Below, in pieces: positions 21,046 to 58,008 of a stretch of DNA of 64,000 nucleotides. The notes under the pieces were generated by a model. That model worked only from the letters and a program-made list of their open reading frames with translations, had not been told where the DNA came from and ran no database searches. Origin of the DNA: an uncultured Candidatus Saccharibacteria bacterium (lineage in GTDB: Bacteria > Patescibacteriota > Minisyncoccia > Phycocordibacterales > UBA918); contig CAZWYM010000001.1 of the NCBI GenBank assembly GCA_964638425.1, forward strand, positions 74,441-138,440, in the 5' to 3' direction. A program made the translations under genes and the position numbers. The first letter of the stretch is position 1; each line of letters starts with the position of its first letter.

Positions 21046-21694
21046 ATCCTTAAATGATAGCAGATCTGTGTTTAAAAGTGAGTTGCGTTTCTCCAGAGCG
21101 CTGCCAGACTTGGAATCTCTCTCATTACATGAGCAGTACACCTTGTCGATATTTTGTTTCCTTACATCACAAAATATCTGGCAAGGTCTTCGAGGTCAGG
21201 GACTCGTCCCGCTTTTTCTAGTTCACTTCGTTCACAAGAACGCTGGACGCGGCTCGCTGTTTCGTCGCAAGCTCCTCATATCGCTCCGCCGTTCGAGTCC
21301 CTGACTGGCTAGCAACGACAAAGGCCACAGACGTATTCACGTTTGTGGCCTGTCGATTGCTGCCAGTCAGGGACTCGAAGCTTACAGCTTCAGTTCAGGT
21401 TGTATGATATTTTCTTTCAGAAAATCTCGACAACCTCCTTAAAAGTCTCCCAGACTTTTAAGCCCCAATAAAATGCGAATGAGGCGTGTCCTAGAGCCGA
21501 ATGAGTGAGTGTGAAAGAAAATGTGTTGAGTTTCCACAGAGCGCTGGCCGTCTCGGGCTAGAACCGTAGGTGACCAAGCCCAGCTTGACGGAATCAGCTC
21601 ATTTTACACTACCTTACCGACGCGTCTCGTGCATCTCAAAAAGTGACAAAAGTGACACGGAACAGCCTGTAATAGTTACAGTCATCTGTAACTA

Positions 21695-30192: not shown

Positions 30193-30280
30193 GGGTAGAG
30201 GGCGAACCCTCTCGTACCAGTTTCCCGATACGGCCTATCAAGCAACCCCATGACGGGTTTTTTATGCTTGATAGGACTTT
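30144..30280. repeat. 15-bp direct repeat tgcttgataggactt (30144-30158 and 30266-30280) with an inverted copy at 30233-30246, in the nuclease/recombinase divergent region
   Basis: Seen directly. Confidence 0.5.
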
Positions 30281-30476
30281 TCGCCATGCCTCGGATAACT
30301 CTGAGGTTTAGGCTACTTCTATATATTCTGTTGTTGCACAATGATAACAGATTTTGCTACCGATTTACACCTTAACGCACAGATGCTGTTTTGTTAAGAG
30401 TATGACGCGAGTATGCGTCGTTTATCTAGTTCTGCATAGACTATGCACCACTGATGGTTCTGTCATTAATGGTCGT

Positions 30477-31826
30477 ATGGAAACACAAGTGATTAACAAT
30501 TTCGGTGTTAAGACGGAAGTACCGGCCACACCAGTTCGCTACGTCTTGTATGCGAGAAAAAGTACCGAAGATTCCAGCGAGAAACAAGCACTTTCAATCG
30601 ACTCTCAAGTCAAGGAAATGCTCGCAATTGCAGAGCGTGAGGGGTTAGACATAATTGATATACGGCGCGAAGCACACTCCGCAAAAGACTCCGGGCAACG
30701 ACCAGTCTTTAATGAGATTTTAAGAGATATAAAATCAGGAAGATACAACGGAGTGGCAACGTGGAGTCCGGATCGCCTAAGTCGTTGTGGGGGTGACTTA
30801 GGTTCACTTGTTGATCTTATGGATGAGAAACATTTAATTCAAATCAGGACATATGGACAGACATTCACCAATACTCCAAGTGAAAAGTTTTTACTGATGA
30901 TCCTGTGTAGCCAAGCTAAATTAGAAAATGACCAAAAAAGTATCAACGTGAAGCGAGGACTTAAGACCAGAGTAGAAATGGGATTGTGGCCTGCACCGGC
31001 ACCAACGGGGTATATCAAAGAGAAACGGATGGACAGAAAGTGCGAGACTTTGATAGATCCAGACAGAGGTCATATTATTAAGCAAGTATTTGATAAAGTC
31101 GCATACGAAAAATGGAGTGGTCGAAAAGTATATAACTGGCTAAAATTTGATTTGAACTTTAAAACAGCTGGAGGGAACAAAAATCTTTCGTTGAGCAATA
31201 TATTTGTAATACTTCAAAATCATTTCTATTACGGTGTATTTGAATATCCAAAAAAAAGTGGCAACTGGTACAAAGGAAAACATGAACCGCTTATATCAAA
31301 AGAACTCTTTGATGCAGTCCAGATGCAAGTAAAGAGTCAGTTTGTCCGATCTGAGAATAAAGAGTTTGCATTCACCAAGCTCATGACATGCGGACTCTGT
31401 GGTTCAGGTATCTGTGCTGATGAGAAGTTCAAGAAACAGAAAAATGGGAATGTGCATCGACACGTATATTACGGGTGCACCAAATCAAAAGACAAAAACT
31501 GCAGGTGTGGCTATATCAACGAAATTGATCTTCTCAAACAATTTGAAGAGCTGATGGATAAAATTGATATAGATGAGATAGGTATCAAACAAAAATTGAA
31601 AGAAGAAGTGGAACGATTCAAAAAGTTCCAGAGAGTACTACTAGGAAAACCAACTCAAGTGACCGTTGAGGAGGTTGATATACGAAATTATGCAAAATAT
31701 TTACTCAGGGAAGGTAAGGATGTAGAGAAGAGAGAATTGCTAGGATGCATAAATAATACAATATATTTAGCAAGTAAAATAATAACTCTACAGATGAGTA
31801 AAAATTGCTTTATTATTGAAGAATGA
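30477..31826 (+). CDS. large serine recombinase (resolvase/invertase catalytic domain + recombinase domain + zinc ribbon)
   Basis: YVLYARKSTEDSS...LSIDSQ catalytic region; ATWSPDRLSR; C-terminal CGLCGS...YYGC zinc ribbon. ORF opens at 30354; Met at 30477 chosen. Confidence 0.8.
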   Translation: METQVINNFGVKTEVPATPVRYVLYARKSTEDSSEKQALSIDSQVKEMLAIAEREGLDIIDIRREAHSAKDSGQRPVFNEILRDIKSGRYNGVATWSPDRLSRCGGDLGSLVDLMDEKHLIQIRTYGQTFTNTPSEKFLLMILCSQAKLENDQKSINVKRGLKTRVEMGLWPAPAPTGYIKEKRMDRKCETLIDPDRGHIIKQVFDKVAYEKWSGRKVYNWLKFDLNFKTAGGNKNLSLSNIFVILQNHFYYGVFEYPKKSGNWYKGKHEPLISKELFDAVQMQVKSQFVRSENKEFAFTKLMTCGLCGSGICADEKFKKQKNGNVHRHVYYGCTKSKDKNCRCGYINEIDLLKQFEELMDKIDIDEIGIKQKLKEEVERFKKFQRVLLGKPTQVTVEEVDIRNYAKYLLREGKDVEKRELLGCINNTIYLASKIITLQMSKNCFIIEE

Positions 31827-53929: not shown

Positions 53930-54144
53930 AAATACGACCAACGGACACTCTCAAGTGTCCGTTTCTTTATAAAAAATACCCCCGCGGTGGGTATTTATGT
54001 TTTTGACGTCAGCTCACTAATTCGCTTACGCTCAAAAGTGGCTCCTGTCCGACCTCGCGGTTTTGGCATTATAAATAGCCAAAACATCGCTCCGGTTCTC
54101 AAAGCTAAAAAACAACACGCAGGTGTTGTTTTTCTTTACGCCTT

Positions 54145-54162
54145 GAGCCATCTCCCGGGATT
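54145..54162. repeat. direct copy of the 3' 18 nt of tRNA-Thr(GGT)
   Basis: gagccatctcccgggatt is identical to 54301-54318. Confidence 0.7.
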
Positions 54163-54256
54163 GGCGTCCAACTCTAGTTCACTACGTTCACAAGAGTTAC
54201 CTGCCCGCGGTTTGCTGTTTCGTGACATTAGGAATAATGTCACTCACATCGCAAAC

Positions 54257-54276
54257 CGTTCAATCCCGGGAGATGT
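54257..54276. repeat. inverted partial copy of the tRNA-Thr(GGT) T-arm/acceptor 3' end
   Basis: ccgttcaatcccgggagatg. Confidence 0.6.
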
Positions 54277-54301
54277 CTCCCTCGTCATTATATTCCTCGT
54301 G

Positions 54302-54374
54302 AGCCATCTCCCGGGATTGAACCGGGGACCTCATCCTTACCATGGATGCGCTCTACCGACTGAGCTAAGATGGC
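54302..54374 (-). tRNA. tRNA-Thr (anticodon GGT)
   Basis: Acceptor GCCATCT/AGATGGC, D-arm GCTC AGTCGGTA GAGC, anticodon stem CATCC/GGATG with loop ATGGTAA, T-arm CCCGG TTCAATC CCGGG. Confidence 0.8.
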
Positions 54375-54518
54375 AATAGTACAGTGTGAAGGTGGTTAAA
54401 AATTCATTGACATAGGGAGTGTCAATTTAGGACCACTATAGGTATGGTCAACGCCCCTCACACTGCGATAGAAGAATACCAAAGTTTTCACTGAAAACAA
54501 AACGTATCGATACCTAGA

Positions 54519-55361
54519 TTAGAGGGAAAGTTCATTCATCCGAGCAAATGTAAATCCTTCGTCTTCCAATGCATCAAGGAGATTGGTGTAATATTCTTGA
54601 TACTTTTCGGCACTATGCGCAGGACCATCTGCAAAATCTTGTGGGTGCAACATAATAATGCAGTAGGTACTTGTCTCAAATCCAACCTTGCATGATTCCA
54701 CAATTTTTTCTGGGGTAAGAAGCGAATCTGTATCATAGTTAAATGTAGATGTGTCGTAATCGAATTGCCCTTTCCCTTCCGATGAGAGGTGTGTGAATCC
54801 GAGTTCATGGAGGGCCTCTACGGTACCTTGCGAATGTACGTTAAACGGAGGAATCCATGTCACAACAGGCTCTTCCGTAACCCCACGTAGCACTTCTAAA
54901 CCAAACAAGATGTGTTCGCGCGCTTCTTCTTTTGTGTATGTACCAAACTCTGGATGGTTGCCATATTCTCCTCCATCGTGTGTTAGCCCATGTAGTGCAA
55001 TTTCATTACGACATGCCGTGGCTTTAAGAAAAGCGCTCAGTGCTTTGTCATCATTAAGACCTAACGGAATGAGTCCTAGAGTAAGTGGTATGTCACGCTT
55101 CCCTGCATCAGTGATCATTTTTTCGCTTGTTTCCCTCCATGAGTAGGCTTGAATGTCGTCAATACGTAGTACGACTGTTTTATCACTCACCGTTCCCTCA
55201 AGTGGTATACAGGTTTTATTAATAGAAACATCGACTGGTAATACACCAGAATTACTGAAAAAAGCAACATAAATAACTCCTGCAACCATTCCTCCAAACA
55301 CGGCAATAATACCGACGAGACGGAGTGCTTGTGTAAATTGTTTTAAAAGTGACGGCTTCAT
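54519..55361 (-). CDS. polysaccharide deacetylase (NodB-homology) family protein, membrane anchored
   Basis: RIDDI (TFDDG-like) and HGLTHD motifs. Confidence 0.6.
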   Translation of the reverse strand: MKPSLLKQFTQALRLVGIIAVFGGMVAGVIYVAFFSNSGVLPVDVSINKTCIPLEGTVSDKTVVLRIDDIQAYSWRETSEKMITDAGKRDIPLTLGLIPLGLNDDKALSAFLKATACRNEIALHGLTHDGGEYGNHPEFGTYTKEEAREHILFGLEVLRGVTEEPVVTWIPPFNVHSQGTVEALHELGFTHLSSEGKGQFDYDTSTFNYDTDSLLTPEKIVESCKVGFETSTYCIIMLHPQDFADGPAHSAEKYQEYYTNLLDALEDEGFTFARMNELSL

Positions 55362-55449
55362 GAATGTACAATATATAGTATCATTCTAAAAAGACAATCA
55401 GGGAAGATTGTTTGATACTGAGGTATATATGTACTAGAGTAATTTAGTT

Positions 55450-55522
55450 GCCGTTTTAGCTCAGTTGGTAGAGCATTGCATTCGTAACGCAAAGGTCCGG
55501 AGTTCGATCCTCCGAGACGGCT
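55450..55522 (+). tRNA. tRNA-Thr (anticodon CGT)
   Basis: Acceptor GCCGTTT/AGACGGC, D-arm GCTC AGTTGGTA GAGC, anticodon loop TTCGTAA, T-arm CGGAG TTCGATC CTCCG. One A31/C39 mismatch. Confidence 0.75.
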
Positions 55523-55632
55523 CATGAAGTAAATGAGGGGTCTCGGATATATGTTTCAATATATACCTAGGATCGAAAAGGATGTCGGGATTTTCTCCCG
55601 AAAATACCATACAACCTGAACAGAATCTGTAA

Positions 55633-55656
55633 GATTCGATCCTCCGAGACGGCTCA
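55633..55656. repeat. direct partial copy of the tRNA-Thr(CGT) 3' end (22/24 nt)
   Basis: gattcgatcctccgagacggctca versus 55501-55524. Confidence 0.7.
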
Positions 55657-55734
55657 GAATAAAGCCTGGATATAGCGTTGCAAAATATGTATAGAACGGC
55701 TATACTCATCGCTATCGCATGTGTTGATACATTT

Positions 55735-55808
55735 GCGGTGGTAGCTCAACTGGTTAGAGCACCCGCCTGTCACGCGGGAGGTTGCGGGTTCGAGTCCCGT
55801 CTACCGCG
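55735..55808 (+). tRNA. tRNA-Asp (anticodon GTC)
   Basis: Acceptor GCGGTGG/CTACCGC, anticodon stem CCCGC/GCGGG with loop CTGTCAC, T-arm GCGGG TTCGAGT CCCGT, discriminator G. Confidence 0.85.
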
Positions 55809-55816
55809 CAATTAGT

Positions 55817-55848
55817 AAAACGGCAATTTCAAACGAAATTGCCGTTTT
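55817..55848 (+). terminator. hairpin terminator after tRNA-Asp
   Basis: aaaacggcaatttc aaacg aaattgccgtttt. Confidence 0.55.
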
Positions 55849-55989
55849 ACGTTATGAGCGGTAGTTTCAAATGTGTGGGACACATTTGAAAAGGGGCTCG
55901 AAGAATCTGAGCAGGCTCTGCGAAGAGTGTACTGAACAAAACAATTTCGAGATATTTTCCTTAAAATATGGGATAAGACGCCAAGGATT

Positions 55990-56185
55990 GGTCACGAGTT
56001 GCTAAGTATTATTCGAAGCAAAGCTTCTTAAATCCTAAGCACTCTCGACTCCACCTCGACTCTACCTCCTGCCCCGCAGGCAAGTCTGCGGTTTTCAATC
56101 CTTGCCGTCGAAAAACTTAGTACACAAAACACCAGATGTGTATCTGGTGTTTTGTGTACTTGTGTCGACGGCAAGGATTGAAACG
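55990..56185. repeat. structured repeat element X (~190 bp): GC motif, inverted tRNA-Met 3'-end arm, 42-bp palindrome, direct tRNA-Met 3'-end arm
   Basis: Homologous (~75% by eye) to element Y at 57372..57560. Outer arms at 56097-56112 and 56162-56184 equal the tRNA-Met 3' end. Confidence 0.65.
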
Positions 56186-56293
56186 TACCGTTTCCGTTTA
56201 GGTTGTATGATACTTTCCTCCTTCGGTCGAAAGTATCGACAACCTTTTCAATCCCTGACGTACTCTTTCCCAAAGAGTACTCCCTCGCCAGTC

Positions 56294-56316
56294 AAAAACC
56301 GCCGTGAGGCGGTTTT
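56294..56316 (-). terminator. rho-independent terminator just after the tRNA-Met 3' end
   Basis: aaaaaccgccgtgaggcggtttt. Confidence 0.6.
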
Positions 56317-56321
56317 ATTTG

Positions 56322-56394
56322 TGTCGACGGCAAGGATTGAACTTGCGACCTTATCTTTATGAGTGATATGCTCTACCAACTGAGCTACGCCGAC
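56322..56394 (-). tRNA. tRNA-Met (anticodon CAT; elongator or Ile-lysidine type)
   Basis: Acceptor GTCGGCG/CGTCGAC, D-arm GCTC AGTTGGTA GAGC, anticodon loop CTCATAA, T-arm GCAAG TTCAATC CTTGC. Confidence 0.75.
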
Positions 56395-56603
56395 AGGTGA
56401 ATGCGCGAGCGAAATAAGAATATGTATATTCTTATTTTCGAGCAAATGAAATCTGTATGGTTCCCCTACGAGTGAGGAAGGGGGTGAAAATTTATTTTCA
56501 CCCATTTTCCGAACGAAGTCGGCGGAAGCTTTGCTTACACCGACATACACATAATGTGCGTGTGCAAGAATACCATTAGATATCCTTCCCTTCAACCTTC
56601 TTA

Positions 56604-57281
56604 TTATCGCATTGATAAAATTGTTTCCGCCTTCACTATATCTTCTGGGTATCCTATTGGAATCCAGAATTGCTCCTCAACTACCGCAACAGGATACTCC
56701 CGCGCATACCGCTCAATCACTTCAGTGAGATAATACTCGCCATTGACTGGATTTGCTGGTTCAAATTGAAATATACGGTCATCGAGAACCATGACTCCTG
56801 TCGAAACGAGATTAGAAGGAGGGTGTGTCGGTTTTTCAACAATTTCTGAAAGTGTTCCATCTGGGTTACGCACGACTACTCCGAAACGCTCTGGTGTATC
56901 ACTTGTTTTTGCGAGCATACCCCGACTGTATGATGCGACGCGTGCAATATCATCCTTGCCGTGGATATCGTCGGCAAACATAAAAAGGAAACGTCCCTTC
57001 AGAAGGTCTTTACATAACCAAAGTGCTCGCGCTGTTCCATCTTGCTCAACTTGCTCGATATAGGTTACCTTCTTCCCTTGGAATTCAGAACCGTAATATT
57101 CACGGATTTGGTCACCTAGATAACCCACCACAATGATAAGCTCGTCGACAGCGCTCGGGAGCGCATCAATGATGTGATTGAGGAGTGGCTTCCCCGACAC
57201 AGGAACGAGTGGCTTAGGAGTATTTTCTGTAAGCGGGCGGAGACGTGTCCCCTTTCCTGCTGCTAAAATGACGCATTGCAT
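56604..57281 (-). CDS. sugar-phosphate nucleotidyltransferase (NTP_transferase family)
   Basis: N-terminal VILAAGKGTRLRPLT signature. The track ORF extends to 57596; ATG at 57279-57281 chosen. Confidence 0.75.
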   Translation of the reverse strand: MQCVILAAGKGTRLRPLTENTPKPLVPVSGKPLLNHIIDALPSAVDELIIVVGYLGDQIREYYGSEFQGKKVTYIEQVEQDGTARALWLCKDLLKGRFLFMFADDIHGKDDIARVASYSRGMLAKTSDTPERFGVVVRNPDGTLSEIVEKPTHPPSNLVSTGVMVLDDRIFQFEPANPVNGEYYLTEVIERYAREYPVAVVEEQFWIPIGYPEDIVKAETILSMR

Positions 57282-57371
57282 ATACTCGTATTTATAGCAT
57301 GAAAGCATAAAACAAAAAAACACCCCATACGGGGTGCTTTTTGTAACGTGTTGCGAGAGGTGTGGAATCGA

Positions 57372-57560
57372 CATCGAGTTCCTAAGTATTTTTCGCAAAC
57401 TCAAAATACTAAGGACTTGTCGGCTCACCTCGGCACTTACCCCCGCCCCGCGGGCGTGCCTGCGGTCGTTCGATTCCAGACATTTTCGCAGAGAATACAA
57501 AAAGATCTGCATAATGCAGATCTTTTTGTATTCTTGTTGCGGAGCCTGGAATCGAACCAG
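57372..57560. repeat. structured repeat element Y; second copy of the X family
   Basis: T-arm-like inverted arms gttcgattccag (57468-57479) and ctggaatcgaac (57547-57558) around a 41-bp perfect palindrome (57493-57533). Confidence 0.65.
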
Positions 57561-58008
57561 GGTCTGGAGGTTATGCTTACCTGCTACAATTTTCATTGCT
57601 CAAGCGATAGCTTGATTTGTGGTCTGGACTATACCTTCATCTTTCTTAAAAAAGTTAAGATGCCTACCATCTAGTCTCTACACCTTCCCATCACTTTGAT
57701 GGGCTTGGCTCGGTATTGCCATGTGCTATACGCACGAAGGTTTCACCGAATTTGGCAGGATTCCATAGAGCATTTCTGCTTTACGAGCCCAATTGAGCCT
57801 CCCGAGGTACCTCTCCTCTACTCCGCGATGATGTGTTTGCTTACCTCTCCTCGTCCCTACTTGAACAAGTGAGGGCGGAAGAATGAATTTATTCATTCTC
57901 TACGTACGAACGCAGTTCAAGCAAGCTTTGCTTACAGGACCTGTTCTTCTACTCACCTCAAAATAATGAGTACACATGAATGTACCGCATGTTTTGAATA
58001 TACGCAAA

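Follow-up and report, generated by a model that had tools for sequence, protein, structure and literature searches.

The 64-kb window considered here, that is, the whole stretch of contig CAZWYM010000001.1 that was analysed, is a piece of the chromosome of a bacterium of the candidate phyla radiation (CPR), in which housekeeping genes for GatA, LigA, RF2, FtsX and CTP synthase are found together with two related elements, X (55990-56185) and Y (57372-57560), whose presence at these positions, claimed in an earlier note on this DNA, was confirmed. X and Y are two of five units (V, W, X, Y and Z) situated behind four tRNAs, with exact repeats of two tRNA-derived segments: T, a copy of the tRNA 3′ end that begins in the T-loop and in some cases continues into trailer or terminator, and T′, an inverted copy of it. 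Read in the sense of the tRNA (the minus strand for X and Y), the parts follow in the order T, a perfect hairpin, T′ ending in ...TCGAA, a body, a second T and a terminator; across the family, either a hairpin or a terminator stands between T and T′. All five units fold into a three-way junction shut by T′:T pairing (z-scores -2.7 to -9.7). V, W and Z, located in 54144-56262, share this layout with other bodies; V and W have one type of body (GGTTGTCGA...CATACAACC), X and Y another.

The likeness of X and Y, put at roughly 75% over their full length in the earlier note, holds as a figure (76% mean column identity across 233 columns in MAFFT), although homology is confined to a body of ~100 nt: the bodies at 55991-56092 and 57373-57468 are identical at 63 of 96 positions by MAFFT, while BLAST aligns 99 nt at 73.7% identity (E 9e-11). 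Each of two conserved blocks has exactly two occurrences in the window, where chance would give 0.02-0.03. The perfect palindromes reported for both elements are real (arms of 19+19 nt at 56119-56160 in X, and of 21+21 nt at 57492-57534 in Y), with 25 of 52 positions identical between them, and the arms described as ‘T-arm-like’ are genuine pieces of tRNA, more specifically tRNA 3′ ends, occupying the same position with a different sequence in each copy (7/14, 9/19 and 11/21 identical). Palindromes and arms are therefore a common layout, not a common sequence. Neither is the family limited to two copies, as a covariance model (R1) adds a third within the window (21196-21306) and a degenerate fourth (53995-54112). 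X and Y look like old, probably inactive copies, since their bodies are only 66-74% identical and their distal T segments are decayed.

The anchor of X is an elongator-type tRNA-Met (CAU) at 56321-56394 on the minus strand, behind which W and X form an array on the same strand. Unit W (56186-56262) consists of a diverged, split T′ (56246-56261) and a body of the V/W type, and is followed by a T copy of the tRNA-Met 3′ end (56165-56183) that serves W as its distal T and X as both proximal T and right arm; taken as 56157-56182, this arm matches the tRNA-Met 3′ end (56316-56341) at 96%. The X hairpin (56119-56160) has a 19-bp perfect stem and is terminator-like on the minus strand, and the X T′ (56094-56111, minus strand; repeat found at 56093-56111) is perfectly reverse-complementary to the tRNA-Met 3′ end. 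The X body (55991-56093, minus strand) forms a three-way junction with helix Pa and helix Pb, the latter a CTTAG hairpin (fold z-scores -5.3 and -4.5; R1 104.3 bits, X and Y both being in the seed alignment of R1, so that their own scores are not independent). The junction is closed by T′ and the X distal T (55977-55990, minus strand), in which 13 of 14 nt equal the tRNA-Met 3′ end.

Y is anchored by a tRNA gene that both ARAGORN and the earlier note missed, a tRNA-fMet (CAU) on the minus strand, split by an intron. Its 5′ exon (57796-57827), assigned by in-silico splicing, and 3′ exon (57537-57575) are separated by 220 nt (57576-57795) inserted in the anticodon loop between positions 33 and 34, with U as the last base of the exon and G as the last base of the intron. 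In-silico removal of these 220 nt yields a 71-nt tRNA-Met(cat) with a C1xA72 mismatch, a mismatch typical of bacterial initiator tRNA, and the spliced sequence is identical to the intron-less gene of a relative, L123. The insert is a group I intron, as the Rfam family RF00028 matches 57611-57805 on the minus strand at 72.1 bits (gathering score 50) and exon joining restores the tRNA; it lies outside the repeat family, and is missing from three close relatives with identical mature tRNA sequence (L123, L124 and L125). The right, ‘direct T-arm’, arm of Y (57537-57560) is thus the true 3′ end of the intron-containing gene, the last ~21 nt of the exon (57537-57557) being the proximal T of Y. Beyond it are the Y hairpin (57492-57534; perfect 21-bp stem, 1-nt loop, with A-tract and T-tract inside the stem); the Y T′ (57469-57481, minus strand), an inverted tRNA-fMet T-loop and T-stem (TCTGGAATCGAA) that pairs with 57359-57370 in the fold; the Y body (57371-57468, minus strand), a diverged member of the three-way-junction type (R1 79.3 bits; fold z-scores -2.7 and -3.5); and the Y distal T (57351-57370, minus strand), a decayed copy of the tRNA-fMet 3′ end (CGATTCCACACCTCTCGCAA). 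The distal T is followed by CACGTTAC and an intrinsic terminator (57315-57342, minus strand), weakly resembling the sequence 3′ of the tRNA in L123.

Among the remaining units, V (55524-55656, plus strand) stands after tRNA-Thr(cgt), with a split T′, a V/W-type body and a 22-nt T copy of 100% identity (55635-55656), while Z (54144-54300, minus strand) stands after tRNA-Thr(ggt), with a 21-nt loop, a 22-nt T′ (54258-54279), a 94-nt body and a 20-nt T of 100% identity (54144-54163; fold z-score of the unit -8.4). The degenerate X-family body (53995-54112, minus strand; R1 22.6 bits, E 0.004) lies behind Z, its AACCGGAG...CGAGGTCGG signature still visible. The third X-family copy (21196-21306; R1 39.9 bits, E 1e-7) belongs to an orphan array on the minus strand (21195-21440), comprising a V/W-type body (21398-21435), a tRNA-Gln-like T (21358-21379), a terminator, a T′ (21292-21313), a hybrid body and a partial T (21195-21205); ARAGORN finds no tRNA at this array, whose two units flank the tRNA-Gln-like 3′ end with no intact tRNA upstream. 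It is located within a probable accessory island, and its tRNA-Gln-like 3′ end differs from that of the window's own tRNA-Gln(ctg); the array may be a carried-along or decayed attachment site.

Close relatives provide filled and empty sites for comparison. The nucleotidyltransferase (NTP-transferase) encoded between X and Y has its nearest homologues in genomes annotated as Paceibacterota or Kaiserbacteria, and it was through these homologues that the syntenic contigs L123, L124 and L125 were reached; an exact-protein search with the same NTP-transferase gave no match. In L123, the closest relative (91% amino acid identity in the NTP-transferase), the identical tRNA-fMet is directly followed by CACGTAACG and a terminator, with neither Y nor the intron, and unit W is carried (91.8% identical over 146 nt) without X. 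Y is also missing from L124 and L125, Z from all three relatives, and gene order is unchanged in the relatives without X or Y. X, Y and Z are therefore insertions, given relatives that do not have them (L123 for X and Y, all three for Z). A second empty/filled pair, L133 and L149 after tRNA-Arg, was considered and rejected, as each carries a different unit. A further tRNA of the region, tRNA-Asp (window 55801-55900, plus strand; 7000-7100 in L123), is followed, here as in each of the three relatives, by a terminator and an inverted copy of its own 3′ end, and in L125 a complete V/W-type unit stands after it, with a ~60-nt perfect duplication of T and terminator. The terminators of tRNA genes in the window and in L123-L172 are of the bidirectional type, long and near-perfect palindromes whose stem is preceded by an A-tract and followed by a T-tract, and often reach into the acceptor end of the tRNA.

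The family extends well beyond this chromosome. A gapped motif taken from the X/Y hairpin recovered 46 metagenome loci, 44 of them true copies and two (L136 and L169) not aligning with the family; two viral matches of the gapped motif were likewise rejected for want of alignment, and matches of a 14-base motif in viral contigs are chance only. A genome-collection scan with a 19-base block, which proved subfamily-specific, gave one true copy, in a Saccharibacteria metagenome-assembled genome (L122), and a match in Acidobacteriaceae (L121) that is due to chance and is not matched by the covariance model. Further copies on the same contigs were found with R1. The L122 copy is 90.5% identical to X over 74 nt, so that ~90% identity links a Paceibacteria-like genome, that of the window, with a Saccharibacteria genome, and copies that share a contig have their nearest relatives elsewhere. 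The units are insertions with horizontal mobility.

Their tie to tRNA ends is strict. Wherever the fetched piece includes a tRNA (33 loci), the motif is without exception found downstream of that tRNA and on its strand, at a distance of 89-149 nt, or 264-295 nt when second in an array; most other loci are cut by a contig end, or have a decayed or intron-bearing tRNA end. The host tRNAs have at least 12 identities, including Gly (three anticodons), Thr, Gln, Lys, Arg, Glu, Val, Ser, Trp and Ala, and one copy is found behind a transfer-messenger RNA (tmRNA) gene (L145 931-1500, minus strand), where the direct repeat, perfect over 32 nt, takes in the encoded CCA together with 11 nt of trailer. 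In most loci, T′ and the second T agree with the local tRNA. Within 300 nt downstream of 71 non-redundant tRNAs in the fetched loci, T′ (at least 12 nt) was found in 30, the second T in 27 and both in 20, as against 0 of 71 with either in equal-sized upstream control regions of the same tRNAs; these frequencies are inflated by the selection of loci for the motif, the contrast with the upstream control is not. It is on the 33 of 33 informative loci at tRNA or tmRNA ends, the presence and absence in relatives and the tRNA-derived flanking repeats that the idea of a mobile repeat with captured tRNA 3′ ends, proposed in the earlier note, can be upheld. Its qualification as similar to a MITE (a miniature transposable element with inverted repeats) does not survive in the classical sense, because the inverted repeats are tRNA-derived and copy-specific and the direct repeats, 14-60 nt in length, consist of tRNA end and are no short target-site duplication.

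Several loci depart from the simple layout. A second small conserved hairpin, of variable stem and with the loop consensus AACTGCTT/AATTGMTT, is located within T′ just upstream of the body in L127, L135, L137, L148, L156, L160, L164 and L172, dividing T′ into an acceptor-complement half and a T-arm-complement half, and looks like a separate module. In L150 (1469-1800), a decayed tRNA-Trp is directly followed by T′ and three nested or partial bodies, suggesting that units insert into one another. In L142 (1640-1930), the whole unit (T, terminator, split T′ and small hairpin) is tandemly repeated after the body, with a near-identical terminator, indicating tandem integration or unequal crossing-over.

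The body, ~100 nt long, consists of two hairpins in a three-way junction closed via T′:T pairing, with the consensus, in the tRNA sense, AGNCGGAG-[variable hairpin]-CGAGN′CGGGGTCGAGAGTNCTTAGKATTTT-[variable loop]-AAAATACTTAGN′AACTCGTGAC, followed by CGAWTCC. In a MAFFT alignment made without fitting to a structure, 88.9% of cells in the proposed pairs are paired, compared with 32-41% when partners are slid by 1-3 columns; cells changed on both sides number 119, compared with 42 in shuffles, and fall in 17 of 35 pairs, one pair occurring as AU, GC, CG and UA. The covariation score is 0.251, versus 0.103 for shuffled and 0.03-0.09 for slid alignments, and RNAalifold independently predicts the two inner helices. 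Helices backed by compensatory changes across independent copies make the body a structured nucleic-acid motif, as had been proposed, although the folded strand may be RNA or single-stranded DNA: covariation cannot tell the two apart (Weinberg et al., PMC5737381), and an earlier search for RNA motifs had recovered integron attC sites (PMC5737381). One strand matters, since the tRNA-sense strand folds better in 32 of 33 copies (-52.1 versus -43.2 kcal/mol); counts of G.U versus A.C in the annotated helices (27 versus 25) give no strand signal.

No known family accounts for the fold. Rfam 15 has no match to the X or Y body at E<=5 except hairpin-type microRNA noise, and none at E<=0.5 in 14 loci with well-conserved members; known self-cleaving ribozymes, tmRNA, Y-RNA-like and other families were accordingly rejected, and a hammerhead mapped by eye onto the junction strands did not fit. 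A derivation of T′ from the 5′ strands of the tRNA also fails, because at the G5.U68 pair of tRNA-Met T′ has A, the complement of U68, and not G. As no description was found in Rfam 15 or in the full-text literature searched, the family, a structured module with an inverted copy of its target, is apparently undescribed.

The insertion junctions are fixed on one side and variable on the other. The 5′ edge of the repeated tRNA segment is constant to the nucleotide, lying in the T-loop between positions 55 and 56 (GTGAC|CGA) in seven copies with perfect repeats of 20-21 nt, and between 53 and 54 in the V/W type. The 3′ edge is variable: it may fall at the discriminator base or a few bases into the trailer, give a repeat of 32 nt with CCA and trailer in the tmRNA case, or extend the repeat to ~60 nt so as to take in a whole terminator. 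A regenerated tRNA and a second T are present at every unit, with a tmRNA case in L145. An unrestored case is offered by L154 (1-345), where an X-family unit interrupts, after G53, the first gene of a tandem tRNA-Glu pair, the 3′ stem sequence of that gene being found ~190 nt downstream; the unit at this locus retains a tRNA-Gly(tcc)-type T fragment, as if it had moved from a tRNA-Gly site. Foreign, donor-type T′ of the tRNA-Gln type is present in L162, L155 and the second unit of L165, from which it follows that T and T′ travel with the element. The fixed T-loop junction, the variable block of identity up to the 3′ end, the regenerated gene and the displaced fragment together argue for site-specific integration into tRNA genes, and the rule of a regenerated target with a displaced fragment is stated for tRNA-targeting islands (PMC4383910, PMC9897764), an attP core within a tRNA T-loop being documented for phage Ms6 at tRNA-Ala (PMC1762012).

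It thus appears rather probable that the X/Y family consists of small (~130-190 bp), protein-less, structured integrative modules that occupy the 3′ parts of tRNA and tmRNA genes in CPR bacteria, regenerating the tRNA 3′ end and displacing the old one. A segment T-hairpin-T′-body would enter the tRNA gene at the fixed T-loop point (55/56 for X/Y, 53/54 for V/W), the T that it brings would regenerate the tRNA 3′ end, and the original end would be displaced downstream as a direct repeat, repeated insertions building up arrays such as W and X. The Y distal T may be such a displaced original end, with which the likeness of the terminator beyond it fits in a suggestive way. As units of 130-190 bp without open reading frames (ORFs) have no integrase within them, the enzyme must act in trans. 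Integration at this sublocation of tRNA genes was reportedly distinguished as a T-loop class by Williams in 2002.

How the inverted copy would serve such insertion can be pictured if the substrate is single-stranded. From its sequence, T-hairpin-T′ is able to form a hairpin that rebuilds a duplex site from two inverted half-sites. A single-stranded equivalent of a T-hairpin-T′-body circle might then fold into a T:T′ duplex identical to the target, with hairpin and body as caps, and a single strand exchange in the T-loop followed by replication might give T-hairpin-T′-body-T, and arrays on repetition. CTXphi and integron cassettes integrate by a single strand exchange that is followed by replication. 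Speculatively, a folded single-stranded DNA site would explain both the carried inverted copy and the conservation of a one-strand fold, and the folded circle is the only reading found that gives T′ a job. By analogy, T-hairpin-T′ would correspond to attC or the attP of CTXphi and the tRNA T-arm to attI or dif, with the element's own tRNA 3′ end sparing the essential gene. The larger proposition, that the units are cassettes of an unrecognised single-strand recombination system at tRNA T-loops, inserted, stacked and exchanged behind tRNA and tmRNA genes by an unknown CPR recombinase, is quite unlikely by our estimate. Cleavage of BstBI-like TT^CGAA sites was rejected as an explanation, since many target T-loops read TTCGATT, TTCGAGT or TTCAATC.

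Several observations weigh against integrative modules as the explanation. Neither a tyrosine integrase, nor a transposase, nor a reverse transcriptase is present among the 48 window ORFs scanned, in which the sole recombinase is a large serine recombinase 24 kb away, and known T-loop integrases need no inverted copy of their site. Z has no terminator between itself and its tRNA and must be transcribed with it, making an RNA role possible. The loci behind the statistics, as said, were chosen by motif. The Y distal terminator is probably the original terminator of tRNA-fMet, on a weak score of similarity to the L123 terminator (13, as against 5 for the Y proximal hairpin). Lastly, a body subfamily 83-90% identical is found at Val(gac), Gly(gcc) and other tRNAs, each time with matching T and T′, a change of specificity that is left unexplained; templated hairpin extension, recombination in the T-loop, primer-binding-site-like regeneration from the tRNA, and homology-driven uptake by natural transformation were considered as possibilities.

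The covariation that supports a folded module would serve equally well for a functional structured RNA from the tRNA transcription unit, in which mobility is secondary and a T′-body-T junction has a closing helix that copies the acceptor/T-arm end of the adjoining tRNA, whether excised by tRNA-processing enzymes or switching its pairing from the 3′ end of the tRNA itself to the spare T and back, so as to regulate maturation. Such an RNA would be in keeping with the better folding of the tRNA-sense strand, an orientation that is always that of the tRNA, a second T that often stops exactly at the discriminator base as a mature tRNA 3′ end does, a Z without preceding terminator, and a T′:distal-T helix that persists even in segments of other than tRNA origin, such as that of L143. 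A folded single-stranded DNA site would be expected just as much to show covariation and one constant orientation (PMC5737381), and of the 21 units that come first in their array, 18 have, after the tRNA and before T′, a terminator-like hairpin plus T-run that leaves no space for a promoter; this argues against routine co-transcription with the tRNA. The units are, in addition, dispensable, with close relatives lacking them at identical tRNAs; many copies are decayed, nested or orphaned; and neither an Rfam family nor a conserved adjoining protein gene accompanies them. Selfish DNA fits decayed, nested, orphaned and dispensable copies better than a needed RNA does, and the structured RNA is considered rather unlikely.

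Complementarity of T′ to the 3′-terminal 11-22 nt of the tRNA would also suit a small retroelement, with T′ as a primer-binding site for the tRNA 3′ end or its complementary DNA (cDNA) and the T copies stemming from reverse-transcribed tRNA or pre-tRNA; the 3′ boundaries of the direct repeats (mature 3′ end, short trailer or terminator T-run) are as expected for it, and A-tract/T-tract terminators could self-prime. Yet no reverse transcriptase is found among the scanned window ORFs, T′ is without a complement of CCA and the T copies are without CCA where the tRNA gene encodes none, no stepwise cycle yields the observed order without added assumptions, and donor-type T′ copies show that T′ is inherited and not remade at each site, leaving this explanation very improbable indeed. 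Directly repeated partial tRNA 3′ ends are, for their part, the classical footprint of phages, plasmids or islands that carry an integrase (PMC4383910, PMC9897764). The units could be scars left where larger elements of this kind had repeatedly integrated and been deleted, with the bodies as left-over attP arms, and the window does have an accessory island with a serine recombinase. Against such scars stand the uniform small size and complete architecture in 44 loci, a body conserved with compensatory changes and found unchanged in kind at at least 12 tRNAs, the lack of an integrase between T′ and T in any fetched locus, and the inverted tRNA-end copies, which attachment-site scars do not feature; this origin seems very unlikely. 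Scarcely credible is a local duplication, or a pair of recombination sites bounding tRNA-Met and the NTP-transferase gene as a cassette. The direct orientation of X and Y 1.4 kb apart had invited the latter idea in the earlier note, but each copy has a different tRNA, with an arm set that fits its own, dozens of unrelated loci hold the family, relatives without X or Y keep the gene order, and the two bodies are no more alike than given above.

The earlier observation is real but wrongly delimited, its cassette idea wrong and its idea of a mobile structured repeat essentially right. It had named a lack of further copies, a lack of covariation and a known Rfam family as grounds on which it should fall; further copies exist, the helices covary, and Rfam offers no family.

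Compared with known systems, the modules are closest in behaviour to tRNA and tmRNA islands and prophages with tyrosine integrases (Islander, PMC4383910), with which they share the tRNA/tmRNA 3′ target, the junction in the T-loop, a carried tRNA 3′ end that regenerates the gene, the displaced direct repeat, tandem arrays and a variable 3′ extent. The split, restored target and displaced fragment on which Islander relies are all present, and the integrase inside is absent: unlike islands, the units are 130-190 bp long, without integrase or other ORF, and have T′ beside a hairpin and a covarying body, one body family serving many tRNAs. The CTXphi-type integrative mobile elements exploiting Xer (IMEX) and integron attC sites resemble them in that one strand can fold two inverted, target-like copies into a duplex site, the integrated copy has direct target repeats at its flanks, units form arrays, and structure is kept over sequence, such DNA being found by RNA-motif methods (PMC5737381). 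The units differ from both in targeting the tRNA T-loop and not dif or attI, in carrying no genes, and in having no XerCD-binding or R/L-box consensus; the likeness is one of layout alone. The R″/R′ box consensus of attC is GTTRRRY, which the T-loop sequences GTTCGAA/GTTCAAT do not fit. No IntI-like gene is present in the window.

Small repeats such as MITEs, Correia, RPE, REP/BIME and PATE are similarly small, non-coding, hairpin-rich and multicopy, present or absent according to strain, and presumably served by an enzyme in trans. The units are set apart by inverted repeats that are the local or donor tRNA end in place of fixed element ends, direct repeats of 14-60 nt and not 2-10 bp, strict target and orientation, and low copy number per genome. 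PATE, derived from IS200/IS605, have similar subterminal hairpins at both ends, insert 3′ of a tetranucleotide without duplication and are partnered by TnpA/TnpB, whereas the left hairpin of the units is variable and tRNA-derived and their direct repeats are long; neither TnpA nor TnpB is found in the window, and no autonomous insertion sequence encoding a related transposase is found among the 48 window ORFs or beside any copy in the fetched loci. Cis-mobilizable elements (CIMEs) and satellite integrative elements, both att-flanked descendants of ICEs that have no integrase, and tycheposons at tRNA genes share with the units the absence of an integrase, att-like repeats at tRNA genes and arrays of partial tRNAs; unlike all of these, which are kilobase-sized deletion derivatives with gene remnants, the units have a compact conserved fold and no known parent element. 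The family is therefore filed as tRNA-gene-targeting integrative elements reduced to a gene-less structured module with an inverted target copy and no integrase on board.

Elsewhere in the window, the probable accessory island (~6000-31800) encodes Fic, a type I restriction-modification system (HsdS, HsdM and two ORFs of ~1050 amino acids), a caspase-domain protein, a LexA/S24-like protein, a DNA methylase, a helicase-like protein and an SNase, its GC content falling to 0.37 at 8-12 kb. The large serine recombinase gene (30354-31826, plus strand), with Resolvase, Recombinase and Zn-ribbon domains, starts 40 nt from a LOOT RNA (Rfam RF03000, 94.8 bits; 30197-30314, minus strand), suggesting that LOOT RNA could be tied to the adjoining serine recombinase or to its attachment site.

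The genomes of CPR bacteria are tiny and their tRNA genes mostly single-copy, and yet most tRNAs of one cluster bear one or two of these modules, with one ~100-nt fold recurring, in metagenomes from groundwater and elsewhere, behind a tmRNA and at least 12 species of tRNA. By creating pseudo-tRNA 3′ ends, orphan pieces of tRNA and long palindromes, the units confuse tRNA annotation, island finders and assembly in CPR genomes. The family represents a compact, gene-free case of the strategy by which a tRNA is restored and its old end displaced, with the addition of an inverted copy of the target. If that copy does build a folded single-stranded DNA attachment site, the principle of CTXphi and integrons would extend to tRNA genes, and the result would point to a recombinase acting in trans whose target can be programmed, and which could serve as a compact tool for integration.

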